From: an uncultured Gammaproteobacteria bacterium
Lineage (GTDB): Bacteria; Patescibacteriota; Patescibacteriia; Magasanikbacterales; JBBTQS01
Length of the DNA stretch: 64,000 bases
NCBI GenBank assembly: GCA_965230935.1
Contig: OZ246400.1
Location: forward strand, 848,864-912,863
Direction: 5' to 3'
Within the stretch, counting starts at the first letter, position 1; each line of letters begins with the position of its first letter. The notes under the pieces were generated by a model. The model saw only the letters and a program-made list of their open reading frames with translations. It did no database searches and was not told the origin of the DNA. The translations under genes were made by a program, and so were the position numbers. This document shows positions 1 through 57,978 of the stretch, piece after piece.

Positions 1-375
1 TATAATCTTAAGTACCCCAAATGGGGCCCAGCAATGGTTGGCGCAGCAGGGCCACTTGCCAATTTATTTCTCGCACTGGTCTTTGGATTGATCATGTTCT
101 TTTTCCCAAGTCCGCAATTGGCTGAACTCTTCTTCATTATTATTTATGCCAATGTGCTGCTCGCAGTATTCAATTTGGTGCCCATCCCACCTCTTGATGG
201 ATCAAAAGTGTTGTTTGCCCTCCTTCCGCCATCGCTCAACCATGTCAAAGTATTCCTGGAGCGCTGGGGCATCTTTCTCGTATTTGTCTTTATCATCTTT
301 CTATTTAGCTGGTTGGCGCCGATTATCACCGGGCTAACCAACTTCTTTATGCAATGGCCAAGGTGGGTGTTTTAA
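1..375 (+). CDS. C-terminal fragment of an M50 site-2 protease (RseP-like), 5' end outside the window
   Basis: Frame 1 is open from base 1. Hydrophobic TM segments and the LVPIPPLDGSKVL motif are typical of M50 metalloproteases. Confidence 0.55.
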   Translation, partial: YNLKYPKWGPAMVGAAGPLANLFLALVFGLIMFFFPSPQLAELFFIIIYANVLLAVFNLVPIPPLDGSKVLFALLPPSLNHVKVFLERWGIFLVFVFIIFLFSWLAPIITGLTNFFMQWPRWVF

Positions 376-477
376 ATGGGGATAGCCTGTGCTCATCACC
401 TCTTGACGTATTTTTAGCGTTTCTGTACAATAGCCGCGTAACAAATTGGTTATTTTTTTGTTCTCAAATAGGCAGGT

Positions 478-897
478 ATGCCAACAATGAACCAACTCAT
501 TCGAAAAGGCCGAAAGCCAAAGCAGAAAAAGTCTGAATCTCCGGCAATGCAGTACGCCTTTAACTCGCTTAAGCGTAAGCGCTCCTATCTTCGTCGTGGT
601 GCGCCATTTAAACGTGGAGTTTGTGTGAAAGTAACCACCAAAACACCGAAAAAGCCTAACTCAGCGCTTCGAAAAATTGCTCGTGTGCGCTTGTCAAACG
701 GTACTGAGGTTTCAGCCTACATTCCTGGTGAAGGGCACAACTTGCAAGAGCACAGTATTGTGCTGATCCGCGGTGGTCGTATTAAAGACCTTCCTGGTGT
801 TCGCTATACTATTGTTCGTGGTGTATATGACACTGCTGGAGTCGAGAATCGAAAGCGTGGTCGTTCACGGTACGGTGCGAAAAAACCAAAATCATAA
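478..897 (+). CDS. rpsL: 30S ribosomal protein S12
   Basis: [14 protein letters not shown]-terminus and the [10 protein letters not shown] motif; it sits at the head of the str operon. Confidence 0.97.
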
Positions 898-900
898 TCT

Positions 901-1371
901 ATGCGCGGTAAACCAGCTCCAAAACGAGAAATTGCTCCAGATCCACGATATGGGAGTATTTTGATTGCCAAGTTCATCAACTATATTATGGAGCGTGGCA
1001 AGAAGAACACCGCTCGCAATATTGTGTACGCTGCATTTGATATTATTTCTGAAAAAACCAAGAAGAATCCAGTAGAAGTGTTTGAAGCAGCGATCAAAGA
1101 AATCACCCCGGCGCTTGAAGTTCGTTCTCGACGTGTTGGTGGTGCCAACTATCAAGTTCCAATGCCAGTTCGTGGTAATCGTCGAAATGCACTTGCGTTT
1201 CGTTGGTTGATCACAGCAGCAAAGAACAAAAAAGGCAAGCCAATGCGTGAGAAACTTGCAGGTGAAATCATGGCAGCATCAACTGGAGAAGGTGATGCGG
1301 TCAAGAAAAAGCAGGATGTTCATCGCATGGCAGAGTCTAACCGTGCATTTGCACACTTTGCCCGTTACTAA
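901..1371 (+). CDS. rpsG: 30S ribosomal protein S7
   Basis: Typical S7 length and sequence; it follows rpsL. Confidence 0.96.
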
Positions 1372-3930: not shown

Positions 3931-5124
3931 ATGGCAGAAATGTTTGACCGAAGTAAGCCGCACGTGAACGTTGGTACTATTGGCCACGTTGACCACGGTA
4001 AAACTACTCTTACCGCAGCAATCCTTAAGGTATTGGCTGCAGCTGGTAAGATTGCACAAAATAAAGATGTTGACCAAATTGACGCAGCTCCAGAAGAACG
4101 CCAACGTGGTATTACTATTGCGACTGCGCACGTTGAGTATGAAACTGACAAGCGTCACTATGCACACGTTGACTGTCCAGGACACGCTGACTATGTGAAA
4201 AACATGATCACCGGTGCTGCACAGATGGATGGTGCGATTTTGGTTGTAAACGCTGCTGATGGTCCTATGCCACAAACCCGTGAGCACATTTTGCTTGCAC
4301 GTCAGGTTGGTGTGCCATATATCGTGGTATTTTTGAACAAAGTTGACCAAGTTTCAGATCCAGAACTGATTGATCTTGTTGAAGAAGAGGTACGTGACTT
4401 GCTCACCAAGTATGAATTTCCAGGTTCAGAGACCCCAATCATTCGTGGGTCAGCGCTTAAGGCACTTGAAAATCCAGGAGATGAGGCTGCTGCCAAGCCA
4501 ATCATGGATTTGATGGATGCACTTGATTCATACATTCCAGAGCCAGAGCGTGATACTGATAAGGATTTCTTGATGCCAATTGAGGACGTGTTCTCAATCG
4601 AAGGACGCGGTACGGTGGTTACTGGTCGTGTTGAGACCGGAATTGTTAAAGTAGGTGAAGAGATCGAGATCGTTGGTATGGGAGACGAGACTACGAAGAC
4701 AACCGTTACCGGTGTGGAGATGTTTAACAAGTCCTTGGATCAAGGACAAGCAGGAGACAACGCTGGTATTTTGCTTCGTGGTACTAAGAAAGATGAAGTA
4801 CAACGCGGGCAAGTGTTGGCAAAGCCAGGTACTATTACTCCACATACTGAGTTTGAAGCTGAGGTATACGCATTGTCAAAAGAAGAAGGTGGACGTCATA
4901 AGCCATTCTTCAAAGGATACAAGCCGCAGTTTTACATTCGTACCACTGATGTGACTGGTGAAGTTACTTTGCCAGAAGGCACTGAAATGGTAATGCCAGG
5001 AGATACCGTGAATGTAACTATCAAATTGCTTGTACCAGTTGCCCTTGCAGAAAAGCAACGATTTGCGATCCGCGAAGGCGGACGAACCGTTGGTGCTGGA
5101 GTGGTAACGAAGATTTTGAAATAA
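3931..5124 (+). CDS. tuf: Elongation factor Tu
   Basis: [10 protein letters not shown] motif, 397 aa. Confidence 0.97.
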
Positions 5125-5177: not shown

Positions 5178-5531
5178 ATGAGCGAAACGACAAAAACAAC
5201 GAAGGCTACGAAAAGCGCGCAAGAAATTACGCAGCGCATTCGTATTAAGATTCGTGCCTATGATAGTACGGTGATTGATGAATCAACCCGTACGATTATG
5301 GATACCGCGACTCGTACTGATGCCAATGTTGTTGGTCCTATCCCACTTCCCACTGAAGTGCGAAAGTACACGGTCAATCGCTCAACGTTTGTGCATAAGA
5401 CCTCACGCGAACAGTATGAGGTGCGCATTCACAAACGACTCATCGACATCATCAACCCGACCCCGAAGACGATTGATGCGTTGATGAATCTCAATCTGCC
5501 ATCCGGGGTAGACATTGAGATGAAGATGTAA
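5178..5531 (+). CDS. rpsJ: 30S ribosomal protein S10
   Basis: IRIKIRAYD...[16 protein letters not shown] is S10-like. Confidence 0.95.
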
Positions 5532-5653
5532 CTTAATACGACTGGTGGTTACAAGGTGATAAGATCCCTCAGCAGGAAAACATCACGGCGAAGCTGACAG
5601 TTAGGAGAAATTCATTACAGATAGTTCACACAACTTCTTCATTGCGAGGAAGG

Positions 5654-5700
5654 CTAGAAATTGTCATAAATTCCTTGATGATAATTTCTAGTCTTTTCGT
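5654..5700 (+). promoter_or_regulatory. Hairpin (9-bp perfect inverted repeat ctagaaatt/aatttctag plus T-tract) in an unusually long rpsJ-rplC spacer
   Basis: The spacer between S10 and L3 is 205 bp. The inverted repeat is followed by tcttttcgttt, so it is a possible attenuator. Confidence 0.3.
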
Positions 5701-5735
5701 TTACCTGGCTCATCAGGAAACCCAAAGTCTATACT

Positions 5736-6506
5736 ATGAAATTCTTACTCGGATCAAAACTCAACATGACCCAAATCTTCCATGAAAGTGGCAAGGTTAT
5801 TCCAGTTACTCGTGTTGCCGCTGGGCCGTGTGTGGTAACCCACGTGAGTGATCGTCCTGATGGATCACGCGCCGTACAAGTTGGGTTTGGTGAGCGTAAG
5901 GCCAAAAAGATGAATAAGGCAATGCAGGGTCATCTTAAGGATTTACCACGTGCAAAATTTTTGCGTCAATTTGTGACCAAGCAAGAGCTCAAGCGCGGCG
6001 ATATGTTACGGGTAACGTCATTTGGAACAGGGGATCGTGTTGCTGTTACTGGTACTTCTAAAGGAAAAGGATTTCAAGGTGTAGTAAAACGTCACGGTTT
6101 TGCTGGATCTCCAGCAACTCATGGACACAAAGATCAGTTACGCATGCCTGGTTCGATTGGTGCTACTGATGCTGCTCGCGTGTTTAAAGGAACTCGCATG
6201 GGAGGACACATGGGTGATGAGCGCGTGACGGTGACGAATCTTGAGGTGGTTGGCGTGGATGAAGAGAAGAACGAGTTATTGATTAAAGGTGCGATTCCTG
6301 GCGCGCGTGGTGGATTGGTTATGATTGCTGCGCAAGGGGAGATGGAAGTTGTGGTACCTGAAGCACCGGCACAGCAGAAGGCTGATGAAGGACTTTCGGC
6401 TGAGCAACCAAAACAAGAAGAAGCTCCAAAAGAAGTAGCACAGGATGAAGCACCTGCCGAGTCAGCACCAGAAAAAGAGCAAGAGAAAGCAGAAGAAACC
6501 ACATAA
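5736..6506 (+). CDS. rplC: 50S ribosomal protein L3, with an acidic/Lys-rich C-terminal extension
   Basis: L3 core sequence plus an EAPAQQKADEG...EKEQEKAEETT tail. Confidence 0.95.
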   Translation: MKFLLGSKLNMTQIFHESGKVIPVTRVAAGPCVVTHVSDRPDGSRAVQVGFGERKAKKMNKAMQGHLKDLPRAKFLRQFVTKQELKRGDMLRVTSFGTGDRVAVTGTSKGKGFQGVVKRHGFAGSPATHGHKDQLRMPGSIGATDAARVFKGTRMGGHMGDERVTVTNLEVVGVDEEKNELLIKGAIPGARGGLVMIAAQGEMEVVVPEAPAQQKADEGLSAEQPKQEEAPKEVAQDEAPAESAPEKEQEKAEETT

Positions 6507-6507
6507 T

Positions 6508-7140
6508 ATGGCACAAGTGAAAGTGTACAACCAAACTGGAAAAGAAGTTGAAACGCTTGAGTTGGCGGACGCAGTATTTGGTGTTGACGTGAATCCGACT
6601 GTGGTGCATGAGGTGGTGGTTGCCGCACAAGCCAATGCACGACAAGTGTTGGCACACACCAAAGGCCGATCAGAAGTTCGTGGTGGTGGGAAAAAGCCAT
6701 GGCGACAAAAAGGAACTGGTCGGGCACGACACGGATCAATTCGGTCACCACTTTGGCGTGGTGGTGGAATTACCTTTGGGCCAACCAAAGAACGTAATTT
6801 TGCTAAGCGTACCAACAAGAAGGTGAAAAAAGCGGCAATGCGCATGGTACTTTCTGATCGTGTGGCACAAGGGAATTTGATTGTGATTGATGAGCTTGCA
6901 TTCGAACAAGTGAAAACTGCTGCATTTGCCAAGATGAAAAATGCATTGCCATGCGGGTATCGCCGCGCAGTGGTGGTAACTGATCAGAAAAGTCCAGAGG
7001 TGTTGCGCATGACTAATAACTTGCAAGATGTTGACACAACCTTTGTGGGTGAGCTTGGTGTGCTTGATGTGGTGAATCACCCGTGTATGATCGTAAGCAA
7101 GAAAGCAGTACAGGCACTTGAAGCCAAGTATACGAAGTAA
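6508..7140 (+). CDS. rplD: 50S ribosomal protein L4
   Basis: The ATG at 6508 directly follows the rplC stop. MAQVKVYNQTGKEV N-terminus. Confidence 0.93.
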   Translation: MAQVKVYNQTGKEVETLELADAVFGVDVNPTVVHEVVVAAQANARQVLAHTKGRSEVRGGGKKPWRQKGTGRARHGSIRSPLWRGGGITFGPTKERNFAKRTNKKVKKAAMRMVLSDRVAQGNLIVIDELAFEQVKTAAFAKMKNALPCGYRRAVVVTDQKSPEVLRMTNNLQDVDTTFVGELGVLDVVNHPCMIVSKKAVQALEAKYTK

Positions 7141-7141
7141 T

Positions 7142-7624
7142 ATGGGAATTTTCTCAAAGTGGAAAAAGAAAAAGACCGATGAACAGCTTGCTGCAGCGAG
7201 TGAGGTTAAGAGTGCGCCAAAAACAACTGCAAAAGCGGCCAAGGTCGTAAAAAAAGATGGTAAGGCGACCGTTGATCAAAAGGCAGTGTCAGAGAAGAGT
7301 GCTAAAACAGCGCCAGCTCCAGCAGTACCACAAACCGGAGGAACATTAGCAAATGTTTTGGTTCGTACCCATATTACAGAAAAAGCAGCAGGTCATGAGG
7401 GCGAGGGGGTCTATACCTTTGAGGTGTCACCTCGTGCAAACAAGTACATGATTGCCCAGGCGGTTCAGAATCGTTTTCATGTTGAGGTAGCAAAAGTGAC
7501 GATTATGAACCGCCGTGGTAAGCGAGTCCGTTTTGGTACTCGTCGCGGTAAGCGCAAAGACCGTAAATTAGCGCGTGTCACCTTGGTAAAAGGACAGACA
7601 CTCAGTGTGCATAAAGGAGTTTAA
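7142..7624 (+). CDS. rplW: 50S ribosomal protein L23, with a Lys/Ala-rich N-terminal extension
   Basis: ATG at 7142. The C-terminal half is L23-like. Confidence 0.9.
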
Positions 7625-35421: not shown

Positions 35422-36381
35422 TCACTCGCCAGGACAGGTGACGACCTGGTTGAACGATTCGCTCCCGCACGAGTAGTCGTCGCAAACCGTCAGGGTGATG
35501 GTGAACTCGCCGCACTGCACGAACTCGACCGTGGCGTAGGTCTCGGTGTCGTACTTGATCAGCGGGGACTGCACGTCGGCCTCGACCGCCGTGACCTCCC
35601 ACTGGTAGCTGTCCACCATGCCGAAGTGGTCGGTGCTGGAGCCGGACTTGGTCCCGTCGAGGCTGATGTGCTTGAGCGTGTCGATGGCGATCGACTGCGG
35701 CTCGTTGATCAGGTCGATGGGGTTCCAGCTCTGGCTGTACGCCATGGCCTTGATCCGGGCGGTGGGCGCCGGCGCCTGGGTGGCGTAGCCACCGAGGCTG
35801 AGCTCGTAGGTGTGGTTCTCGATCTCAGCCGCGTGCGCCGTGGCCTCGATCGTGAGCACGCCGTAGCGGTACTCAGTGAAATCCACGTCCAGCTCGAGCT
35901 CCTCGTGCGTCTTGGGCTCGAACACGGTCGGGATGGCGCTCTTGTGGCCGGCCTCGATGGTCTGGAACCGGTTCTTGGTCGCCACATCGAAGTCCGCCTC
36001 GCCGTCGCCGTACACCACCACGTCGATCACCTCGACGTCCACGCTGTACTCGCACCCGTTGTGCACCTGGATCATGCGCTGAGTCGCGCCGCCCAGGTAC
36101 GTATCGGGGAACTCGTACGTCGCAGGGATGGTGATGCACTTGGACAGCGCCGCCGCCTCCACGTCCTGCTCGTTGTCGCTCGTCTCGTCGGACCCAGCCA
36201 GCTCGGCCGGCGGCCCCTCGGGCTCACCGTGCTCGCCGAAGCCGCAGTCGCCCTTGTAGATCTCGGCGACCTCCCAGCCGCGCTCGATCGTGGGGTCGGA
36301 CTCGGCCATGCAGCCGATCTGCGGGGTGGCAGCGATGAAAAGGACGAAGATGAGCGACGCGTTGTTGATAACCCGCTTCAT
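35422..36381 (-). CDS. High-GC secreted lipoprotein of unknown function (319 aa, Asp/Glu-rich, three Cys pairs)
   Basis: Signal peptide with a lipobox (FIAATPQIGC) and a GGAGGC RBS. About 65% GC, in sharp contrast to its flanks. The antisense ORF at 35626-36552 is compositional noise. Confidence 0.7.
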   Translation of the reverse strand: MKRVINNASLIFVLFIAATPQIGCMAESDPTIERGWEVAEIYKGDCGFGEHGEPEGPPAELAGSDETSDNEQDVEAAALSKCITIPATYEFPDTYLGGATQRMIQVHNGCEYSVDVEVIDVVVYGDGEADFDVATKNRFQTIEAGHKSAIPTVFEPKTHEELELDVDFTEYRYGVLTIEATAHAAEIENHTYELSLGGYATQAPAPTARIKAMAYSQSWNPIDLINEPQSIAIDTLKHISLDGTKSGSSTDHFGMVDSYQWEVTAVEADVQSPLIKYDTETYATVEFVQCGEFTITLTVCDDYSCGSESFNQVVTCPGE

Positions 36382-36554
36382 GAGAATGCCTCCGTTGCTT
36401 ACTGTCTCTTACTGTTGCGCTCAAACGCCGGCACCTGCCGACTCGTACTTGGGGTAAACCCGTTCCGTAGGGAATACATTTACTGTTTTTGGAAAATGCC
36501 CTCCTTACGAAGCGTTTTCTTAAACAACGTAAAATCAACTCGAAATAACTGAGA

Positions 36555-45303: not shown

Positions 45304-45481
45304 TCAGGTATACCTGTACGAATCAGCTGTCTATCTCTGAGGTGCAACGTCGCATCTTGAGCTCTAAGCAATTGAGCGTGCAGGTATGCACACATCGATG
45401 ACCTTGGAGGGTCCGATGATTTTTTCCGTTTTGACCACTTTGGCCACTATCAGCAACCCCAACGACTCCGAGGAGGGAGCC

Positions 45482-47170
45482 ATGAGCGACGACAAGAAGA
45501 GCAAGAAGAAGTCGCCGCCGGCCCCGGCGGAGGCGAACGAGGGCGATGCGAAGCGCAAGTACGAGCCGGGTGACGGGCCCTACGAGCGCGTTCACGCGGA
45601 CGTCATCGGCTCGATGGAGGCGCAGTACTGCTGCAATCCTTTCGACCAGGCCGACGCGTGTGACTTCACCGGCGGTCCGGACGAGCTGACGTTGCCGAGC
45701 TTCAAGGCGCTCAACAGCAGCATCAGCCGGGTGCACGGGCTCAAGCGCGGGTTCTTCCCGGGTGACGAGGCCATCTACGCCCGTTGCCCGCAACACGCGC
45801 ACGAGGTCCGGTACGGCAACCGGACGATCCGCGAGACCTTCAAGTACACGGCCGATCGTTGGGCCGGTAAGGGTCGGACCCCGAGCACCTGGATGGCGCA
45901 GCCGCTGCCGCACCCCGAGGCCTTCAATAAGCACCCGTACTGCACTCCGTGCAGCGGGAGCTGCGGCGGCCTGTGGCTCGAGACCAACCTGTACGCCCCG
46001 CAGCCCGAGGCGCTCGTGGAGCAGCTGGAGGACGTCGAGTCCACCGGCGCGCTCACGCGGGAGCACTTCGGCGCGCATCTGCTGTGCAAGCGGTGCGTGG
46101 ACGCTGACGCGGTCGAGCAGGGGACCCTCGTCGAGTTCGCCACGATCGTGGCGGCCTTGGGTTGGGAGCCGCGGGAGTACGTGCCCGAGGCGCTCGATCT
46201 CGAGGGGTTCGAGGGGACGCAGGTCACGGTTGAGCACCCGCAGCTCGAGGTCTCGCAGAAGCTCCAGGCCGTGGTTCGTTCGACTCACACGTCGTTCGGG
46301 GTGTTCGCCCGCATCGTGGATGACGGACGTGACGCCCTGTTGCGTTGGGAGGACGTCAACGCGGACTACAACGTGGGTGACGTGATCGACATCTGGATCG
46401 CGCGGCTGCACTGCAAGACGGGTGAGGACGGCGAGTCGGATCGCCTCTTCATCTGGGCGGCGGACACCAAGCCCGTGCTCTTGGCGGACGTCAAGTCCGG
46501 CCAGGAGTTCGATGGCGAGGTGGCCTCCCACGCGCCCTTCGGCATGTTCGTGCGCATCGGTCCGGCTCTGCCGGCTGGTGTCGTGCACAAGAGCGTGCTG
46601 AGCGGCCGTTCGCGCGACGACTTCCCGGTGAACACGTTCGTCCGGGTCATGGTCAGCGACGTGGACCACAAGCGTTCTCGACTCAACCTCGTGTTGGTCG
46701 AAGACGTGGAGGGAAGCAGAGCGGTCCAGGACTGGAAGGCGCAGGCGCCGGGAGCGGAGGACGTGGTCTCGGTCGACCAGGAGGTGGGGAAAGGTAAGAC
46801 CCCCACCAAGGTCGGCCTGACCATGGTTCCGCCCAAGTCCGAGCAGCCCAAGTCCAAGAAGTCCCGGTTCGTCCCCAGGCGCCGCACGACGTACGTGGTG
46901 GGTCCCAAGCCCGCCGCTGCGCAGCAGCGTGAGGAGGTCGAGGCGCAGCTCGCCGATGCCGCCAAGGTGTTCGGTGAGGCCGAGCACATCCAGAAGACCG
47001 GTACCTACGGGGCCGGATCCAAGGACAGCATCGGTCGCTCGCTCGAGGGGCGCAAGGCCGGTAAGGCCAAGCGCTCGAAAGCCGAGGAGATCAAGGATCG
47101 GACGCTCAAGGTGTTCGGCGACCTCTTCAACGTCCGCCAGGGCAAGGGCAAGAAGGGCAAGGGCAACTGA
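45482..47170 (+). CDS. High-GC 562-aa protein: N-terminal Cys/His-rich region, three S1/OB-like RNA-binding domains and a Lys/Arg-rich tail
   Basis: GAGGAGGG RBS 6 nt upstream of the ATG. One canonical S1 motif (GQEFDGEVASHAPFGMFVRIGPALPAGVVHKSVLS) and two degenerate ones. About 66% GC with GC3-rich codons. The antisense 622-aa ORF is noise. Confidence 0.7.
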   Translation: MSDDKKSKKKSPPAPAEANEGDAKRKYEPGDGPYERVHADVIGSMEAQYCCNPFDQADACDFTGGPDELTLPSFKALNSSISRVHGLKRGFFPGDEAIYARCPQHAHEVRYGNRTIRETFKYTADRWAGKGRTPSTWMAQPLPHPEAFNKHPYCTPCSGSCGGLWLETNLYAPQPEALVEQLEDVESTGALTREHFGAHLLCKRCVDADAVEQGTLVEFATIVAALGWEPREYVPEALDLEGFEGTQVTVEHPQLEVSQKLQAVVRSTHTSFGVFARIVDDGRDALLRWEDVNADYNVGDVIDIWIARLHCKTGEDGESDRLFIWAADTKPVLLADVKSGQEFDGEVASHAPFGMFVRIGPALPAGVVHKSVLSGRSRDDFPVNTFVRVMVSDVDHKRSRLNLVLVEDVEGSRAVQDWKAQAPGAEDVVSVDQEVGKGKTPTKVGLTMVPPKSEQPKSKKSRFVPRRRTTYVVGPKPAAAQQREEVEAQLADAAKVFGEAEHIQKTGTYGAGSKDSIGRSLEGRKAGKAKRSKAEEIKDRTLKVFGDLFNVRQGKGKKGKGN

Positions 47171-47308: not shown

Positions 47309-47326
47309 AAGACAAGGAGGGCCATC

Positions 47327-48001
47327 TTGAAGAGTTTTTCCTCTTTTCGTCTGGTTCGGCGAAGAGGGTTTCGATGGTCAGTGCTGCTTGTCATGCTGGT
47401 CATCTTCATCTTGATTTTTGTCCCGTTGGAGGTGGCACCTATGACGACTACGCCGGAACATGTGGTGAGCTGTGATGCGCCCAGCAAGGTCGTCGTCAGT
47501 TTCACTCAGGAGCAGATGCGCCAACAGGTGAGCCGGGTGTTTCCGATCAATTTGCCTGAGGTGGTGCGCATGGTGGACGTGGTGCTGCACGATCCATCGA
47601 TCACCTTGAACCAGATCAGCGCCAGCACAGTCACACTGGAGCTCGGCGCAACGTTGGTGGTGAGCACGCCATTGCCTGGTGTTCCGGAAGGGCGGTATCG
47701 TGCAACGATCAGCGCCACCGGATCGTTGGTGTACGGCAATGTGCACAAGGCCGTGTACATCAGTGAGTTTGCCATCACGCAGCTCACGCTCAGCGGACGT
47801 CTTGCGCATGTTCAGGACTCGACGCGCTTGCGCGCGTATGTCCAGGAGGTGTTGCAACAGCAGGTGCTGAGTAATGTGCCGCTGTACCGGACAAGTGAGG
47901 CTCAACTCGCCACGATCGCACCAAATGCGGCTGTGGTACAGGCTGCACTCACCCCCAGTGGGGAGGTGCACATTGGTCTGAGCTGGGATGAGCACCGCTG
48001 A
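47327..48001 (+). CDS. DUF1439 (YceB-like) family protein with signal peptide; TTG start
   Basis: AAGGAGGG RBS 7 nt upstream of the TTG. Basic-hydrophobic N-terminus. Resemblance to the DUF1439 pattern. About 58-60% GC. Confidence 0.55.
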   Translation: MKSFSSFRLVRRRGFRWSVLLVMLVIFILIFVPLEVAPMTTTPEHVVSCDAPSKVVVSFTQEQMRQQVSRVFPINLPEVVRMVDVVLHDPSITLNQISASTVTLELGATLVVSTPLPGVPEGRYRATISATGSLVYGNVHKAVYISEFAITQLTLSGRLAHVQDSTRLRAYVQEVLQQQVLSNVPLYRTSEAQLATIAPNAAVVQAALTPSGEVHIGLSWDEHR

Positions 48002-48129: not shown

Positions 48130-48414
48130 ATGGCTAAAGGAATTACTAAGTCTCAACTTATGAATGAGTTGGGTGAAAAGTGGGGTGTCAGCAAAAAAGA
48201 GGCTGCTGAAATGCTTGAAGCATTAGTGCAACTTGCATACCACCACGCAAAGACTGATGGGGAAATGATGATCCCTGGTCTTGGGAAGCTGGTAAAAGCA
48301 CACCGTAAAGCACGTATGGGTCGTAACCCAGCAACCGGTGAGCAAATTCACATCCCTGCTAAGACTGTGGCAAAGTTCCGTTTAGCAAAGGCCGCAAAAG
48401 ACGCAATTCTCTAA
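48130..48414 (+). CDS. hup: HU/IHF family DNA-binding protein
   Basis: 94 aa; GFGKF-like arm (IPGLGKLVKAHRKARMGRNPATGEQI). Confidence 0.9.
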   Translation: MAKGITKSQLMNELGEKWGVSKKEAAEMLEALVQLAYHHAKTDGEMMIPGLGKLVKAHRKARMGRNPATGEQIHIPAKTVAKFRLAKAAKDAIL

Positions 48415-48491: not shown

Positions 48492-48914
48492 CTACGACGT
48501 TGGTGCTGAATCACCTGTCGAGTCATCTGCCGGAGAAGATGGTTCCGGAGGTGAGGCCGGGGCACTTGGGGTTGGTGTTTCAGTAGCTGGTGTTGAAGGG
48601 GCTGCAGGTGCACTTCCTTCGTGTTGAGATTTCTTGAGTGCATCCTTAAGGTTTTTTCCGGCCTTAAACTTGGCTACTTTAGTAGGATTGATGGTAATTT
48701 TTTCACTTGGATTTTGTGGGTTCACCCCAATACGACCTGCACGAACACGTGCGGAGAACGTACCAAATCCAGCAAGAACCACCTCACCGTTCATTTTAAG
48801 GGTATCAGTGGTGATACTCATAAAGGCCTCAACCATATCTTCGGCCTCTTTTTTGCTCACACCAACTTTGGCGCTAATTGCATCGGCTAATTCTGCTTTA
48901 TTCATGTTCGTCAC
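48492..48914 (-). CDS. HU family DNA-binding protein with a Pro/Ala/Ser/Thr-rich acidic C-terminal tail
   Basis: HU core (GFGTFSARVRAGRIGVNPQNPSEKI) plus a roughly 45-aa PAST-rich tail. Confidence 0.85.
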   Translation of the reverse strand: MTNMNKAELADAISAKVGVSKKEAEDMVEAFMSITTDTLKMNGEVVLAGFGTFSARVRAGRIGVNPQNPSEKITINPTKVAKFKAGKNLKDALKKSQHEGSAPAAPSTPATETPTPSAPASPPEPSSPADDSTGDSAPTS

Positions 48915-48968
48915 CTCCCTCTAGGAGTAGGTTATTTTACACAATCAGTGTACCAGAAGTATGCAAAT

Positions 48969-50683: not shown

Positions 50684-51364
50684 TTATGCTTGATTGGCAA
50701 GTGTTAGTGACTGCCAGTTTTCAGTGGTGATTTGGGTAATTTCATGGCATTGATCAAGGGAATATTGACCAATTCGTGTGCGAGTAAGTGCACTGGCATA
50801 GGCGCCGCAGCCAAGTGTTTGACCGATGTCATGGATAAGCGTCCGGATGTAGGTTCCAGGACCACATACAATACGCAATTGTGCTTGTTGATTTTGGGTA
50901 TCAACGTGGAGCAGTTCAATAGATGAGATGCTAATGGTTGTTGGTTGGCGGGCAATAGTTTTTCCAGCACGCGCCAATTCATACAGTTTTTTTCCTTGAA
51001 TTTTTTTGGCACTATACATTGGTGGTATTTGTGAGATGTTGCCAATAAATTTGGGGAGAACTTGTTGAAGAGTCTCTTGGGTGATTGTTGCAGGATGAGG
51101 ATGTGGTGTAATGATGCCGTCACTATCTTGAGTGTCGCTGACGGCACCAAATTGTGCAGTGGCAATATATTCTTTTTCAAGCGCTTTAAATTGATCAATA
51201 GATTTGGTGCTTTCGCGAGTAATGGCGACAATAAGTACCCCGGTAGCAAAAGGGTCAAGTGTGCCAGCGTGGCCGATTTTTTTCTCACCAGTAATACTGC
51301 GTAATTTAGCGACAATATCGTGAGAAGTCCATTCTTTTGGTTTATTGATGCACACAAATGGCAT
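50684..51364 (-). CDS. truB: tRNA pseudouridine-55 synthase TruB
   Basis: GHAGTLDPFATGVL motif. Confidence 0.92.
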   Translation of the reverse strand: MPFVCINKPKEWTSHDIVAKLRSITGEKKIGHAGTLDPFATGVLIVAITRESTKSIDQFKALEKEYIATAQFGAVSDTQDSDGIITPHPHPATITQETLQQVLPKFIGNISQIPPMYSAKKIQGKKLYELARAGKTIARQPTTISISSIELLHVDTQNQQAQLRIVCGPGTYIRTLIHDIGQTLGCGAYASALTRTRIGQYSLDQCHEITQITTENWQSLTLANQA

Positions 51365-51513
51365 ATACTGAGTTTTAGGATTGATAATATGTTCAAACTA
51401 TACTAGTATCATCAATACTACTCAAGACAAGTCATGACGGATGGTGCGTGTCCTATATTTAGGGTAGGCATGGTCCGTTATACAGCCACGGGTTGGTTGG
51501 AGGAGTACCTCAG

Positions 51514-52416
51514 ATGATAATTGAAGTCGGCCCAGACGGGGGGAGCGTAAAGCATCCTCCTCCTGCTGGCAGCAGCGAAGACCGGCGGCGTCGTGGCCGT
51601 AGCAGAGGTCGACGCGGTGGTCGGCGAGGAAAAGGAACAGGAGGTTCAAAACTCGATTCGTCAAATAGGGCCTCGGGTGGTGCAGACCCTCCTAGGCTAG
51701 TCGTAAGGGGGAAAGAACCACCATCGGATAGTCCTCCCGACGAGTCAGTGTTACTGGCCGCACAGTTGATGGAGCTTGTAGAGGGCTCTTTAGACTCGAG
51801 CGGGTTGCCAGGCTTGCGGGAATTTGATCCTGAGTTGAGCTCAGAGGATCGCGAGGAGTTGCGTCAACGGTTTCGAGAGGTCGTGGCCAAGTTGTGCGCG
51901 CACGTGGATCAGTTGCAGCTTCACCAGCTGGCGCTCCAGCCAGATGTCGGTGGACCGCTTCGCGAGGTGCGTCTATGCTTGCTCGGCTGGATGGATCTTG
52001 CGAGTGCTCGACGCAAAGCGGTGTATGCGGCGCTTGATCGCGCAATACTCGCCTTGATCGCGCAAGAGGAGAGCGACCCAAAGGAGTCACTTGGACGTAC
52101 CCAGCGTCGGCGGCGTGAGCGACGTTCACGGATTGCACGTCAAGTGCGACAGCTTCGCTTGCGCCTGGAATCTATCCATCCCGGCAAGGATGGTATGAGT
52201 TTTCAGGAGTACGATCTTGTGCGTCCGGCCCTTGAAGGGCAAATTCGTCGATTGGCTGAAGTTCGAGATTTGAGACGCAACAGACGGGCACAGACCCTCT
52301 TTGCTCATCTGCTCGAGACTCTGCCTATGTGGCGCGGGCTTCCAAGAGCAGAACGACGAGTAGTGCTCTATGAGCTCAGACGGCTTGAGAGGCTGTTCAC
52401 GGACTCAGACTCGTAG
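51514..52416 (+). CDS. High-GC hypothetical protein (300 aa; Arg/Gly-rich N-terminus, Arg/Leu-rich helical remainder)
   Basis: GGAGGAG RBS 7 nt upstream of the ATG at 51514. About 60% GC; the antisense ORF is noise. No recognisable domain. Confidence 0.55.
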   Translation: MIIEVGPDGGSVKHPPPAGSSEDRRRRGRSRGRRGGRRGKGTGGSKLDSSNRASGGADPPRLVVRGKEPPSDSPPDESVLLAAQLMELVEGSLDSSGLPGLREFDPELSSEDREELRQRFREVVAKLCAHVDQLQLHQLALQPDVGGPLREVRLCLLGWMDLASARRKAVYAALDRAILALIAQEESDPKESLGRTQRRRRERRSRIARQVRQLRLRLESIHPGKDGMSFQEYDLVRPALEGQIRRLAEVRDLRRNRRAQTLFAHLLETLPMWRGLPRAERRVVLYELRRLERLFTDSDS

Positions 52417-52443
52417 TCCATACCATCCAACAAACAACACGAT

Positions 52444-52471
52444 GCAGCGTCAACGGCGCTGCTTTGGTTTT
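52444..52471 (+). terminator. Hairpin terminator (gcagcg-tcaacgg-cgctgc followed by TTTGGTTTT) ending island 3
   Basis: Read directly from the sequence. Confidence 0.45.
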
Positions 52472-52491: not shown

Positions 52492-52519
52492 TTGCATTTT
52501 TTCTCGATTTTGCTATACT
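52492..52519 (+). promoter_or_regulatory. Promoter TTGCAT-N16-TGcTATACT for infB
   Basis: Read directly from the sequence. Confidence 0.5.
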
Positions 52520-52537
52520 CCCAGCACATTTCATCCT

Positions 52538-54580
52538 ATGAACGTCACTGAACTTGCACGGCGCATGCGCATGAACACCGCAACGCTCCTGGAAATTCTC
52601 CCGGAGTTTGGTTTTGATATTGGGAAACGCGCGATTAAAGTAGATGATCGGATTGCGCAGAAGATTTTGCGGCAAAGTAAATACATTAAAGAGGCGCTTG
52701 AGAAGCGTAAAGAAGAAGAGGCAAAAAAGCGCAAAGAGTTGGAACGTCAGATGCGTCAGGAAAAAGGGGAGAGTGTTGTGATTCCTGATCGTATTACCGT
52801 ACGCGAATTTGCTGATCGGCTTGGGTTGCCGGTAACAACAATTATTGCGGAGTTGATGAAGAATGGTATTTTGGCAAACTTAAATGAAAATATTGATCGG
52901 GATACCGCAACTGTGTTAGCCGAAGACCTTGGTTTTATTGTACAGCAGCAAGATCAAGATGCTCAGGAAGTTGAAAGTGAGCAGGTGGTTGATTCTCTTG
53001 AGACGGCACTTGGTCAACAAGATAGCGAGGCATTTGTTGCTCGTCCACCGGTTGTGGTGGTGATGGGACATGTAGATCATGGAAAAACAAGCTTGCTTGA
53101 TGCGGTGCGTAAGACCAATGTAATTGCCGGTGAATCCGGTGGAATTACCCAACACATTGGTGCCTATCAGGTTGATCACACCATGAAAGAGGGTGGTGAA
53201 TCTCGTAAAGTGACTTTTGTTGATACTCCAGGACATGAGGCGTTTACGGTTATGCGATCACGTGGTGCGCGAGTTGCTGATATTGCGATTTTAGTGGTGG
53301 CTGCTGATGATGGGGTCATGCCACAGACTGTTGAAGCAATTGATATTATCAATGCGGCAAAGTTGCCCATGGTTGTGGCAATCAACAAGATGGACAAAGA
53401 AGGTGCAAATCCTGAAAAAGTAAAAACAGAACTTTCACAGCGTAATATTGTTCCAGAAGAGTGGGGAGGAAAAGTACCGATGGTGCAGATTTCTGCCAAA
53501 GAAGGGACAAACATCGACGCCTTGCTTGAAACGGTATTGCTGATGGCTGATGTTCACGAAGAGGCAATTGTAGCAGATCCTGACCATTCTGCTGTTGGAA
53601 CCGTGGTTGAGTCCCATGTTGATAAAGGTGAGGGGCCAGTTGCTACGATTTTGGTCCAAGCTGGCACCCTTCGTCGTGGTGATGTTTTGGCAGTGAATGG
53701 ACAGATCTATGGAACGGTTCGGGCAATGAAAGATTTTCGTGCAGATGATGTTAAAGAGGCTGGTCCGTCAATGCCGGTCAAGATTTTGGGATTCAAAGCT
53801 GCTCCGTCAGTTGGTGATATTTTAGATGTGGCTGCAGCAAAAGATGCCACAAAGATTAAGAAAACCAAGACAACTAGTAAGCCAGCTACCGTGGTTGCGC
53901 CGGTATCCTCATCTGATGAAGATGAAGAAGACGAAGGCAAGAAAAAGATGTTGTACGTAGTGCTGAAAGCCGATGTGCTTGGTTCGCTTGAGGCAATTTT
54001 GGCGTCAATTGAAAAGTTTGTGCATGATGAAGTCGGGGTGAAGGTTGTGGGTAAAGGTCTTGGCAATATCACCGAGGCTGAGATTGATCGCGCAACATCC
54101 ACTGGTGCGCAAGTATTTGCGTTTCATGTAGCGGTTCCACCATCAGTAAAAGACTTGGCAAAAGATAAAGAAGTGGTGGTGCAGCGTTTTGAAGTGATTT
54201 ATAAGTTGCTTGAGTATATTGAAGCAGAGTTGCAAAAGCTTTTGCCGTCAGAGCGCATTGTGCATGAATTGGGTCATGCAACCGTGAAGGCGATTTTCCG
54301 TAAAGATAAAAGTGCTATGACGGTTGGATCGTTGTTGGAGGATGGTAAGTTTACCTTGGAGGCGCGCGTGCGCATCAAGCGCGGTGGTGAGGTGATTGGA
54401 GATGGTAAGATTGAGAGTTTGCAGATTGGTGCCTCAAAAGAAAAAGAGATTCCCGCAGGAACTGAGTTTGGTATGCGGGTAGTAAGCAAGACAGGAATTG
54501 AAGAGGGTGATATACTGGAAGCCTACACCGAAGAGGTGAAGCAGCGAAAAATTGAATTTAAACACGTTACTCAAGAGTAA
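52538..54580 (+). CDS. infB: Translation initiation factor IF-2
   Basis: IF2-N domain (MNVTELARRMRM), G-domain ([12 protein letters not shown]) and a C-terminal beta-barrel. The start is set at 52538 rather than the long ORF-track start. Confidence 0.93.
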   Translation: MNVTELARRMRMNTATLLEILPEFGFDIGKRAIKVDDRIAQKILRQSKYIKEALEKRKEEEAKKRKELERQMRQEKGESVVIPDRITVREFADRLGLPVTTIIAELMKNGILANLNENIDRDTATVLAEDLGFIVQQQDQDAQEVESEQVVDSLETALGQQDSEAFVARPPVVVVMGHVDHGKTSLLDAVRKTNVIAGESGGITQHIGAYQVDHTMKEGGESRKVTFVDTPGHEAFTVMRSRGARVADIAILVVAADDGVMPQTVEAIDIINAAKLPMVVAINKMDKEGANPEKVKTELSQRNIVPEEWGGKVPMVQISAKEGTNIDALLETVLLMADVHEEAIVADPDHSAVGTVVESHVDKGEGPVATILVQAGTLRRGDVLAVNGQIYGTVRAMKDFRADDVKEAGPSMPVKILGFKAAPSVGDILDVAAAKDATKIKKTKTTSKPATVVAPVSSSDEDEEDEGKKKMLYVVLKADVLGSLEAILASIEKFVHDEVGVKVVGKGLGNITEAEIDRATSTGAQVFAFHVAVPPSVKDLAKDKEVVVQRFEVIYKLLEYIEAELQKLLPSERIVHELGHATVKAIFRKDKSAMTVGSLLEDGKFTLEARVRIKRGGEVIGDGKIESLQIGASKEKEIPAGTEFGMRVVSKTGIEEGDILEAYTEEVKQRKIEFKHVTQE

Positions 54581-55005: not shown

Positions 55006-57978
55006 ATGAAAGAATACGATTTTCAATCTATTGAGCCTAAATGGCAGAAATACTGGGAAAAGCACGGCACGTTTCGTGCGCATGATTTTTCAGCTGACAA
55101 GCCCAAGTACTATCCATTAGTTGAGTTTCCGTATCCATCGGGTGCTGGTTTGCATGTTGGTCATCCACGTCCATACACTGCGCTTGATATTGTGGCGCGC
55201 AAACGTCGCATGGAAGGCTACAATGTGCTTTATCCCATTGGGTGGGATGCATTTGGGTTGCCGACGGAAAACTACGCCATTAAGACCGGTCGTCCGCCGG
55301 CTGAAGTTACTGCCGAGAATATCGAGACATTTACGCAGCAGATCAAGTCTTTGGGTATTTCATTTGATTGGTCACGCGAGGTAAATACCACTGACCCATC
55401 ATATTATAAGTGGACACAATGGATTTTTTTGAAATTATTTGAACATGGCTTGGCTTATAAAGCGAATATTCCAATCAACTGGTGTTTGTCATGCAAGATT
55501 GGATTGGCTAACGAAGAAGTGGTGGAAGGGAAGTGTGAGCGGTGTGGTGGTGAAGTAGAGAAGCGTGACAAAGAACAATGGATGCTGGCGATCACCAAAT
55601 ATGCTGATCGACTGCTTGCAGATTTGGACACCATTGATTACATCGAGCGTGCGAAGGTGCAGCAACGCAATTGGATTGGGCGAAGTGAAGGGGTGCGCTG
55701 GGTTCAGAAGATCAAAGATTTTGATATTGAGATCAAAGCATTTGATTCAGTACCACAAACCTACATGGCGCAAACATTTGCCGTGATTGCTGCGGATCAT
55801 CCATTGCTTAAGACGTTGGTTGAAGGTACTGAGCATGAGGGGCCAGTCATGAAAAAAGCTAAAGAGATTTTGGCGGCTAAGATGAGTGACAAATATGACG
55901 AAGATAAGCAGATGGAGGGCATTTTTACCGGTCGCTACATTGAGGATCCGTTTGGCACAGGGGATTTACCGATTTGGGTTGCATCATTTGCTATTGCTGA
56001 TTATGGATCTGGGATTGTGAATTGTAGTGCCCATGATGAGCGAGATTTTGCGTTTGCCAAAAAGTTTGATATTCCGTTGCGGCCAGTGATGTTCCCAGAA
56101 GATAAGGACGAGGCGCAAAAGGTTCGCGATTTGGAGTATTGTTATCATCACGATGAGAATGCCGTGCTTGCCGCTCCTGAGCAATTTGCTGGGCGTAAAT
56201 GGGGTGAGGCGCGCGAGGATATTATTGCGCATGTTGAAAGCCTTGGTATTGGCGAGCGAGCAGTACAATATAAATTGCGTGATTGGGTATTTTCTCGTCA
56301 GCGCTATTGGGGAGAGCCGATTCCTTTGGTTAAATGCGAGCCATGTGGTGGATGGATACCAATTCCGATTGAGCAACTTCCACTTACGTTGCCCGAAGTT
56401 AAAAAATACGAACCAACTGATACCGGGGAGTCACCGCTGGCAGCAATGGAGGATTGGGTAAACACCACGTGTCCAAAATGTGGTGGGCCGGCTAAGCGTG
56501 AGACCGATACCATGCCAAACTGGGCCGGGAGTAGTTGGTACTTTTTGCGCTATTGTAGCCCGGATGATCCAGAGTTTTTCACGCATGAGAAAAAATGGAA
56601 GCGCGACGCAATCGAGCCAAATGATCATGACAAGGCGGTGTGGCAAACGTTTATGTTATTGCGTGATGCGTTTTCCAGTGCTGGTGTGCGATTTTGGGTG
56701 TGTGGAAGCCTGCTGATTAATGCACTTAACCGCGCAATCTGGAAACACATGGACGATTTAGACATTCATGTGCACAGCCGGGATTATGAGCAGGCAATTG
56801 CACTGTTGGAGTCATTAGGTATGACTATGAATCAACGACGAGAGGGAAGTTGTCAGATGACCCATGGTGAAGTGGATATTGAGTTGATCGCAATTGATGA
56901 AGCAAATGGCCACCAATATTCCTATTATGCCAATGGTCAGCGTATTGTTTTGGCGCGTAATGACTGGGAGTTGGTAGAGCGTGGCGAGCTGTTTGGTGAG
57001 AGCTTCAGTACAGTGTCTCCTTGGCATGCGTTGTGGCAGTATACGTATTTGCAAAAATATTTCGAACGAGAAAAAGAAGGTGATGAAGATAAGAAAGCTT
57101 TCTTGAAAGAATATCTGGAGGATCCGGTAAATTATTGGATGGGTGTTGATTGGTATAACGGTGGTATGGAACATACCGTATTGCATTTGTTGTATTCACG
57201 GTTCTGGAACAAGTTTTTGTTTGACATTGGTGCTGTGCCAGTGAGCGAGCCGTACAATAAACGCACCAGCCATGGATTGATCTTGGCTGAAGGTGGAGAG
57301 AAGATGAGTAAATCTCGGGGGAATGTTATTAATCCAAATGAGATTGTGGAGCAGTTTGGCGCGGACACATTGCGCACATATGAAATGTTTATTGGACCAT
57401 TTGATCAGCATGCGGCATGGTCTACCAAAGGATTGGTTGGGGTACATCGATTTTTAGAAAGGATCTGGAAGGTTCAGGAAAAGGTTGATCAGGTGGCTGA
57501 TGATCAGGTTGATTCGGCATTGATGCAAAAGATGCATTACACCATTGCCAAGGTTGATGCTGATATTGAAGCGATGCGGTTTAACACGGCGATTGCCGCA
57601 CTCATGGAATTAAACAATGTATTGATGAAAGAGGAGGTGGTACCGCTTTCGGTGTATCGAACGTTGGTGCAATTATTAAGTCCTTTTGCGCCGCATCTGT
57701 GTGAAGAGCTTTGGCAAACATTTGGTGATTCTGATGTTTCGATTTCAAAAGCCCAGTGGCCAGTTGTTGATCCTACTTGGTTAGTACATGAAGAAGTTAC
57801 CATTGTGGTGCAAGTAAACGGAAAGGTTCGTGCGCAAGTAGATGTGAGTGTAGATATTCCTGAAGATGAGCTTAAAGCATTGGCATTAGCTGAGCCAAAA
57901 GTCGCTAAATGGCTTGATGGGAAAACGCCGCAAAAGATAATTGTGGTTGCAGGAAAGTTGGTGAGCATTGTGGTCTAA
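55006..57978 (+). CDS. leuS: Leucyl-tRNA synthetase carrying an extra roughly 175-aa insertion
   Basis: HVGH and KMSKS motifs, a CP1 region and zinc knuckles. At 990 aa it is well above the typical bacterial length. Confidence 0.93.
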   Translation: MKEYDFQSIEPKWQKYWEKHGTFRAHDFSADKPKYYPLVEFPYPSGAGLHVGHPRPYTALDIVARKRRMEGYNVLYPIGWDAFGLPTENYAIKTGRPPAEVTAENIETFTQQIKSLGISFDWSREVNTTDPSYYKWTQWIFLKLFEHGLAYKANIPINWCLSCKIGLANEEVVEGKCERCGGEVEKRDKEQWMLAITKYADRLLADLDTIDYIERAKVQQRNWIGRSEGVRWVQKIKDFDIEIKAFDSVPQTYMAQTFAVIAADHPLLKTLVEGTEHEGPVMKKAKEILAAKMSDKYDEDKQMEGIFTGRYIEDPFGTGDLPIWVASFAIADYGSGIVNCSAHDERDFAFAKKFDIPLRPVMFPEDKDEAQKVRDLEYCYHHDENAVLAAPEQFAGRKWGEAREDIIAHVESLGIGERAVQYKLRDWVFSRQRYWGEPIPLVKCEPCGGWIPIPIEQLPLTLPEVKKYEPTDTGESPLAAMEDWVNTTCPKCGGPAKRETDTMPNWAGSSWYFLRYCSPDDPEFFTHEKKWKRDAIEPNDHDKAVWQTFMLLRDAFSSAGVRFWVCGSLLINALNRAIWKHMDDLDIHVHSRDYEQAIALLESLGMTMNQRREGSCQMTHGEVDIELIAIDEANGHQYSYYANGQRIVLARNDWELVERGELFGESFSTVSPWHALWQYTYLQKYFEREKEGDEDKKAFLKEYLEDPVNYWMGVDWYNGGMEHTVLHLLYSRFWNKFLFDIGAVPVSEPYNKRTSHGLILAEGGEKMSKSRGNVINPNEIVEQFGADTLRTYEMFIGPFDQHAAWSTKGLVGVHRFLERIWKVQEKVDQVADDQVDSALMQKMHYTIAKVDADIEAMRFNTAIAALMELNNVLMKEEVVPLSVYRTLVQLLSPFAPHLCEELWQTFGDSDVSISKAQWPVVDPTWLVHEEVTIVVQVNGKVRAQVDVSVDIPEDELKALALAEPKVAKWLDGKTPQKIIVVAGKLVSIVV
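56600..57125 (+). other. Inserted domain within LeuS resembling the Lnu/ANT(2'') nucleotidyltransferase fold (PF10706-like), likely degenerate
   Basis: RFWVCGSLLINAL...KHMDDLDIHVHSRDYEQAIALLESLG...EVDIELIAI parallels YWLDGGWGVDVL...REHRDIDIDFDAQHTQKVIQKLEDIG...YLDIHPINL of Lnu(A) and the ANT(2'')-Ia pattern. The insert lies between YFLRY and the GGMEH motif. Confidence 0.45.

Follow-up and report, generated by a model that had tools for sequence, protein, structure and literature searches.

A GC-rich open reading frame between truB and infB

The 64,000-nucleotide stretch analyzed here (the window; positions 848,864 to 912,863 of contig OZ246400.1, assembly GCA_965230935.1) carries a 300-codon open reading frame (ORF), called ORF300 below, between the divergently transcribed core genes truB and infB. 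A preliminary description of this DNA had pointed to an Arg-rich ORF of high GC content at this site, equipped with its own GGAGGAG ribosome-binding site and its own hairpin terminator directly ahead of the infB promoter. All of these elements are found in the 1173-bp truB-infB spacer, and they are arranged as follows (window coordinates).

50684-51364, minus strand: truB (tRNA pseudouridine-55 synthase; Pfam TruB_N and TruB_C_2), core gene on the left flank, reading away from the insert
51365-51513, no strand: spacer of 149 bp whose left side is AT-rich, containing promoter-like sites in either direction
51381-51409, plus strand: promoter-like site TTGATA-17-TAGTAT directed towards ORF300 (promoter scan)
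51425-51397 and 51412-51384, minus strand: two promoter-like sites directed towards truB (promoter scan)
51499-51505, plus strand: Shine-Dalgarno (SD) sequence GGAGGAG, 8 nt 5′ of the ATG at 51514 (read from the sequence)
51514-52416, plus strand: ORF300, 300 codons plus TAG (52414-52416), the sole open frame of the segment
51583-51636, plus strand: Arg/Gly-rich tract RRRRGRSRGRRGGRRGKG, ORF300 residues 24-41 (direct translation)
52444-52471, plus strand: intrinsic-terminator-like hairpin GCAGCGTC-AAC-GGCGCTGC, then TTTGGTTTT (terminator scan)
52492-52519, plus strand: infB promoter, with −35 element TTGCAT (52492-52497), a 16-nt spacer and extended −10 element TGcTATACT (52511-52519)
52538-54580, plus strand: infB (IF-2; Pfam IF2_N, GTP_EFTU and IF-2), the right flanking core gene

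The promoter scan returned four promoter-like sites in the 149-bp spacer, where 0.6 are expected from shuffled sequences. Downstream of the ORF300 stop codon, the predicted terminator is formed by an 8-bp stem with six G-C pairs and a 3-nt loop followed by TTTGGTTTT, and RNA folding assigns the hairpin −18 kcal/mol (z = −2.3). Its G+C-rich stem-loop and T-run are the features by which Rho-independent terminators are predicted. The insert as a whole lies upstream of the −35 element of the infB promoter, which ends 18 nt 5′ of the infB ATG.

Mechanical ORF calling places the start of infB at 52370, within ORF300. This start was rejected because the N-terminal sequence MNVTELAR, which is conserved in all relatives, begins at the ATG at 52538. 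For purposes of annotation, the infB start is best set at 52538 and ORF300 treated as a transcription unit of its own.

Most of the GC excess comes from amino-acid composition

GC content in 100-nt windows rises from.33-.45 to.53-.64 between approximately 51450 and 52450 and then falls to.43-.50, compared with a window background of about 45%. For ORF300 itself the value is 58.0%, whereas the 47 host ORFs in the window average 44.6% with a standard deviation of 1.7 (z = 8), which bears out the high GC content first described. Composition is strongly periodic along the codon, with GC contents at the first, second and third codon positions (GC1, GC2 and GC3) of.71,.50 and.53, compared with about.55,.40 and.39 in host genes. 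At the third position the difference from the host value of.39 ±.04 corresponds to z = 3.5.

When the ORF300 protein is re-encoded with host synonymous preferences, the resulting gene is still 53.6% GC, against 58.1% observed in the same decomposition. Consequently, about 9 of the 13.5 points of excess (about two thirds) derive from amino-acid composition and about 4.5 (about one third) from synonymous choice. The protein is rich in Arg (16.7%), Leu (13.7%), Gly, Ala and Glu, and poor in Ile, Lys, Asn, Thr, Phe and Tyr. The high GC content of ORF300 is thus about two thirds a matter of amino-acid make-up, and the remaining third would be what is left of a foreign synonymous bias after partial amelioration.

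ORF300 had also been presented as the third compositional island within 17 kb. Three islands do exist (35.4-36.5, 45.3-48.0 and 51.5-52.4 kb), but they are not of the same kind. For island 1 and the first gene of island 2 (island 2a), the relationship seen in ORF300 is reversed: host synonymous usage predicts GC contents of 45.5% and 48.7%, whereas 65-66% is observed, and GC3 reaches.94 and.89, respectively, compared with.53 in ORF300. Likewise, the log-likelihood ratio per codon that compares host with island 1/2a synonymous usage is +0.58 for ORF300, between +1.1 and +1.4 for host genes, and below 0 for the high-GC3 island ORFs. Because its GC3 and synonymous usage fall between those of host and island genes, island 3 is compositionally distinct from islands 1 and 2, and ORF300 appears to be at most partly ameliorated foreign sequence. 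Its composition and codon usage are atypical in the manner used to recognize horizontally acquired islets, although two thirds of the excess is driven by amino acids and synonymous usage is intermediate. The case carries a caution for island calling. A 13-point GC excess can be mainly amino-acid driven, and therefore GC3 and synonymous usage should be examined before recent transfer is inferred.

The truB-infB spacer is a recurrent insertion site

TruB from the window shares 49-68% identity with its counterparts in Magasanikbacteria-like and other “Patescibacteria group” metagenome-assembled genomes, and the gene order leuS-trx-infB<>truB-rny-HU (<> denoting divergence) is conserved over the relatives recovered. 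In five distinct relatives (nine loci, L098-L106), whose TruB proteins are 60-64% identical to that of the window, the infB and truB start codons are separated by only 56-74 bp. The spacers of these five relatives hold the same infB promoter as the window (TTGTAT-N16-TTTGCTATACT). In those of exactly 56 bp (L098 and L103-L106) it has the form TTGyAT-N16/17-TTTGCTATACT and is located 9 nt before the ATG. This promoter is conserved in all relatives, including L097, the closest relative (see below). The conserved promoter loci are at 52492-52540 in the window, 7945-8000 in L098 and 5945-6000 in L103-L106. In these relatives with 56-bp spacers, the 9 nt between the end of the promoter and the infB ATG hold no SD sequence, and for this reason the infB mRNA in this lineage is probably leaderless or nearly so.

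These comparisons indicate that the short truB<>infB spacer is the ancestral state and that the segment of about 1.1 kb carrying ORF300 is an insertion, in agreement with the preliminary description. No similarity was found between the 149-bp spacer of the window and either the 56-bp spacers of the relatives or the 5′ spacer of L097. Two more distant loci, L004 and L005, have truB-infB spacers of 138 and 243 bp that lack an ORF. Other relatives carry cargo of various kinds at this site: a purF-like gene (L003), a tkt-like (transketolase-like) gene together with a methyltransferase gene (L006/L049), genes for a methyltransferase, an NhaA-like protein (57% GC) and a pyrophosphatase (L010), and a Cys-rich 192-aa ORF (L047). 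Since the slot is empty in some relatives and filled with unrelated cargo in others, it is a recurrent insertion site. A slot that accepts unrelated cargo also makes the neighbors truB, rny and infB uninformative on the function of ORF300.

The NhaA-like gene of L010 (3678-4922) encodes a membrane protein classified by eye. At 57% GC in a genome of 42% GC, it represents a second high-GC cargo at this hotspot.

The marks of a mobile element are absent. Repeats flanking ORF300 do not go beyond chance 9-12-mers, no tRNA gene lies beside it (the sole tRNA genes of the window are at 30.6 and 31.8 kb), and the segment contains neither a mobility gene nor, in its single ORF, a recombinase domain detectable with Pfam. 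An integron cassette was set aside by inspection, as the hairpin is only 19 nt long and the segment encodes no recombinase; no dedicated attC/IntI search was made.

A counterpart of ORF300 in the closest relative

The closest relative, L097, comes from a separate study. Its TruB, RNase Y, HU and LytR proteins are 68%, 80%, 82-97% and 69% identical to those of the window, respectively, and its truB-infB slot is also filled.

European Nucleotide Archive (ENA) ERZ23496502, ROBB21-1 scaffold_1832, 371-934, minus strand: orf187 (protein P0122), 187 aa, between truB and infB

The slot and orientation of orf187 are those of ORF300. An SD sequence, AGGAGG, is located 7 nt upstream of the start codon, and the RG-rich N-terminus MARGRGRPRRRGQRSGW precedes an Arg/Leu-rich helical body. 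GC content is.59 (GC1, GC2 and GC3 of.65,.50 and.61) against a background of.42-.45. Downstream of the ORF, a terminator hairpin with T-run (−18.4 kcal/mol, z = −4.1) precedes the conserved infB promoter. The two loci differ in the length of the protein (187 versus 300 aa) and of the 5′ spacer (56 versus 149 bp).

Protein and DNA comparisons give mixed evidence on whether the two ORFs are related; the negative results are listed further below. The collinear Smith-Waterman score of ORF300 with orf187 is 69, compared with 37 ± 6 for shuffled sequences (0 of 1000 shuffles as high; z of about 5), and the helical bodies alone give a shuffle p value of 0.008. Control comparisons of ORF300 with unrelated small Arg-rich proteins of relatives gave p values of 0.09-0.85. 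Moreover, the motif CAAA(C)CAACACGA lies directly 3′ of both stop codons (p = 0.009). Taken with the negative results, we consider it probable, though unproven, that ORF300 and orf187 share ancestry and have diverged to an extreme degree.

That orf187 matches ORF300 in slot, orientation and architecture, and also has a high GC content (.59), speaks against a recent acquisition of ORF300. An ORF conserved at this position with host-like GC content had been named as grounds for abandoning the earlier account. An ORF does occupy the position in L097, but conservation of its sequence is not recognizable and its GC content is not host-like. This positional pair, diverged beyond recognition beside neighbors that are 68-97% identical, offers a small test case for the persistence of orphan genes in streamlined genomes.

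The predicted ORF300 protein

The product of ORF300 has a mass of 33.9 kDa, an isoelectric point (pI) of 10.6 and the high Arg and Leu contents given above. It can be divided into three parts.

Residues 1-76: tail, rich in Gly, Pro, Ser and Arg (46% Gly/Pro/Ser), pI 11.5, lacking secondary structure in a low-confidence AlphaFold2 model
Residues 77-190: acidic, helical middle, pI 4.8
Residues 191-300: basic, helical C-terminal part, pI 11.7

Within the tail, residues 24-41 (RRRRGRSRGRRGGRRGKG) form an Arg/Gly-rich tract that is predicted to be disordered, consistent with the RGG-like N-terminus originally noted. In the single-sequence AlphaFold2 model the tail is unstructured and about nine helices follow after residue 77; the models of ORF300 and orf187 both have a disordered tail and then helices. 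There is no hydrophobic segment in ORF300, and hence no signal peptide or membrane span.

That the protein has no recognizable domain has also held up. Searches of ORF300 against Pfam, NCBIfam, PHROGs and PADLOC returned best E values of 0.04-0.98, far below curated cut-offs, and comparison with PDB sequences gave no significant match. Specifically, no recognized RNA- or DNA-binding domain was found with Pfam, NCBIfam or PDB. There was no match in tblastn searches of phages and plasmids or in a scan of viral contigs, and there are no paralogues in the window. Homologues through which a donor lineage could be traced were not identifiable in the protein, phage, plasmid and viral-contig collections searched. 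From its charge and composition, we infer that ORF300 encodes a basic protein whose Arg/Gly-rich tail and basic C-terminal helices may make electrostatic contacts with RNA or DNA.

Origin and maintenance of ORF300

The interpretation we favor, with moderate confidence, is that ORF300 is a genuine orphan gene restricted to its lineage, that the segment of about 1.1 kb bearing it is an old insertion into the short truB<>infB spacer, and that the ORF300 product is a fast-evolving, basic and putatively nucleic-acid-binding protein. The segment would have entered the ancestral divergent spacer immediately 5′ of the conserved infB promoter. The unit it carries could operate autonomously, given a sigma-70-like promoter in the left, AT-rich spacer, an SD sequence that is strong and optimally spaced, the 300-codon frame and a terminator, and this predicted terminator would shield the infB promoter from read-through. 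The insertion would be older than the split from L097, the nearest known relative, because that genome holds a similarly built 187-aa ORF in the same slot and orientation. The two proteins have become almost unrecognizable to each other, which would imply very fast evolution. ORF300 is also likely to be expressed and maintained, since its frame length is improbable, its codons are periodic in composition and an equivalent frame exists in the sister genome despite DNA that can no longer be aligned.

Several observations weigh against this interpretation. BLASTP detects no similarity between ORF300 and orf187, and neither the ORF DNAs nor the 5′ spacers of the two loci are similar, leaving orthology unproven. 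An hhalign comparison of the two proteins gives a pairwise P of 0.0065, yet a probability of just 2.5%. ORF300 found only self-matches both in a word-index search of 5.8 billion clustered proteins and in an exhaustive phmmer search of 1.84 billion representatives, and orf187 found only itself in the former collection. Confidence in the AlphaFold2 models is low, with predicted local distance difference test (pLDDT) scores of 42 for ORF300 and 54 for orf187. Foldseek searches of the PDB with these models returned nothing below E = 0.3, a result made uninformative by the low confidence of the models. The proposed nucleic-acid-binding role is based on charge and composition alone. Finally, published work found no more than 48% of the 16S genes of Parcubacteria to carry the anti-SD motif (PMC9297842).

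A different history, rather unlikely in our judgment, would have ORF300 and orf187 as unrelated cargo from two separate insertions at the hotspot. ORF300 would then be fairly recent and derived from an SD-using donor of moderate to high GC content. This account draws on the unrelated cargo at the truB<>infB site in L003, L006/L049, L010 and L047, on the empty BLASTP and DNA comparisons of the ORFs and their 5′ spacers, and on the HU-lytR slot, where the high-GC3 ORFs of the window and those of L097 are likewise unrelated. However, separate insertions must contend with the orientation, SD sequence, RG-rich N-terminus, helical body and terminator that ORF300 and orf187 have in common, as well as with their shared post-stop motif (p = 0.009). 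Weak collinear protein similarity of the kind they exhibit is not seen with Arg-rich controls, and the intermediate synonymous usage of both ORFs is more readily explained by an old than by a recent acquisition.

It is less probable still that ORF300 is a non-functional or not-yet-functional frame, either decaying foreign DNA or a de novo ORF, that stays open through the scarcity of stop codons in GC-rich sequence and yields no useful protein. Such a frame could well be a strict orphan with empty domain searches and low AlphaFold2 confidence, as ORF300 is, and the frequencies of Gly, Ser, Ala and Pro are near our own estimate for random sequence of 58% GC. Yet even at the GC content of the segment, a stop-free run of 317 codons is reached in only about 1 of 10,000 mononucleotide shuffles (p of about 1e-4), and the five remaining frames contain 5-13 stops each. 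GC1 far exceeds GC2 and GC3, and the protein is depleted in Thr, Cys, Asn and Ile, unlike a random translation. An SD sequence at ideal spacing and a terminator are present, and a similarly built open frame is kept in the sister genome, where flanking proteins are 68-97% identical and the ORF DNAs no longer align. The other five frames of the segment have no Pfam match, and no Rfam family matches the segment.

An assembly chimera, in which a contig from a high-GC organism was fused to a Patescibacteria contig, might be suspected from the abrupt change in composition and the metagenomic source, but is excluded for practical purposes: the ENA assemblies of both sequencing runs (ERR2281800 and ERR2281801) and a Logan assembly of ERR2281801 all place ORF300 between truB and infB, the two loci aligned to the window (L001 and L002) are 100% identical to it over both junctions, the same TruB is on record on a 931-kb contig as well, the flanks on both sides are syntenic core genes, and GC3 of ORF300 is only.53. 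The runs belong to project PRJEB17505, on which a literature search returned nothing.

Shine-Dalgarno usage and the other GC-rich islands

SD usage was surveyed by looking for GGAGG before the candidate start codons of window ORFs, taken as a crude set with a minimum length of 150 aa; one gene (HU2) was added by inspection. The window includes no 16S rRNA gene. No host gene in the crude set has GGAGG before a candidate start, and few have even a 4-mer SD. HU2 is the one host gene with this motif (48914-48918), found by eye. All four island ORFs carry GGAGG 5-9 nt upstream of their start codons, at 36389-36393 (island 1), 45406-45410 (island 2a), 47316-47320 (island 2b) and 51499-51503 (ORF300). 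For Patescibacteria, the locus provides one concrete example in which cargo at a conserved insertion hotspot has retained a canonical SD sequence, in a genome that otherwise hardly uses them. The three remaining island ORFs are as follows.

35422-36381, minus strand: island 1, acidic protein (pI 4.2), N-terminus hydrophobic, sub-threshold PKD-like match, GC3.94
45416-47170, plus strand: island 2a, 584-aa protein containing a single S1 RNA-binding domain, GC3.89
47327-48001, plus strand: island 2b, DUF1439 protein, GC3.69

The S1 protein likely starts at the ATG at 45416 rather than at 45386, because GGAGG is found at 45406-45410. Donor tracing by tblastn of the island 2 proteins against plasmids gave no match.

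The slot that carries island 2 in the window, between HU and lytR, is also filled in L097. There, positions 5477-7155 encode three small basic ORFs, two of them with Cys-x-x-Cys pairs, with GC3 of.84-.89 and no relationship to proteins of the window. Elsewhere in L097, a GC-rich 103-aa ORF (2064-2375) is located between truB and rny. The window and L097 therefore have the same slots filled with different high-GC cargo.

This pattern allows a broader scenario that we regard as improbable, in which GC-rich genes with SD sequences continue to enter a few fixed spacers between core genes (truB<>infB, truB-rny and HU-lytR) of the Magasanikbacteria-like lineage. They would come from a high-GC partner, which might be the host of an episymbiont. 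Islands 1 and 2 (GC3.89-.94) and the HU-lytR ORFs of L097 (GC3.84-.89) would then be recent imports, and ORF300 and orf187 older, partly ameliorated ones that are still translated. The sole observation that may point this way is that the window and L097 have the same slots filled in parallel. If the scenario were true, the islands would record the identity of the host and yield a set of fast-evolving basic interaction proteins.

Other observations on neighboring genes

Relatives have a family of small basic proteins encoded between truB and rny. These proteins are 75-87 aa long with about 14-27% Arg and a pI of about 12, are encoded by GC-rich genes, end in ...RRRDRxNVRGRGR, and have no Pfam match.

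L098, 8766-9005, minus strand: small basic protein of the truB-rny slot
L103/L104, 6738-7001, minus strand: member of the same family
L106, 6739-6966, minus strand: member of the same family

In L101, an Arg-rich 69-aa ORF (4134-4343) occupies this slot and does not align with the family, and the window has no small basic ORF there. A link between ORF300 or orf187 and this Arg-rich family was rejected, as no similarity was found.

The leuS gene of the window (55006-57978) encodes a 990-aa LeuS with an inserted nucleotidyltransferase-like domain at residues 552-632 (approximately 56659-56901), which matches Pfam PF10706 (Aminoglyc_resit) with E = 1.4e-5 and 25.7 bits against a cut-off of 21. 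LeuS of L098 and L105 is 946 aa long and lacks this domain, and the proteins of L103, L104 and L106 (1086-1119 aa) have a NUDIX domain. Two HU paralogues, at 48130-48414 (plus strand) and 48492-48914 (minus strand), are adjoining and convergent and share 38% identity. Both are conserved in relatives, and one has a C-terminal extension rich in Pro, Ser, Thr and Ala.

Relation to known systems

Arginine-rich segments occur in the C-terminal half of RNase E, and DEAD-box helicases have basic C-terminal extensions. ORF300 resembles such Arg-rich or RGG-type RNA-binding tails in that a disordered, Arg/Gly-rich tract of very high pI appears to be joined to a folded part. The likeness is compositional alone, because ORF300 differs from these proteins in having no recognized RNA-binding or catalytic domain and no sequence homology to them.

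Orphan genes form a second point of reference. ORFans, as Daubin and Ochman reportedly described in 2004, are typically short, A+T-rich and fast-evolving. Like taxonomically restricted orphans in general, ORF300 has no homologue outside one lineage, seems to evolve very fast and is of short to medium length. It departs from them in being GC-rich relative to its genome and in having a strong, canonical SD sequence that host genes lack.

Close parallels are the well-described chromosomal hotspots at which horizontal transfer places genes between conserved core genes (Oliveira et al. 2017, PMC5635113), and the genomic islands and individually transferred genes of Patescibacteria, which account for up to 13% of genome length (PMC12455944). 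Syntenic core flanks, a slot that is empty or variously filled, cargo of atypical composition and foreign expression signals are all common to these systems and the locus described here. The differences are that ORF300 is a single gene on about 1.1 kb, that integrase, tRNA and flanking repeats are all missing and no donor homologue was found, and that its compositional anomaly lies mostly in amino-acid content rather than in the mutational bias of a donor. The ORF300 locus fits this known kind as a probably old single-gene insertion at a core-gene hotspot, but it lacks mobility genes, repeats and a traceable donor.

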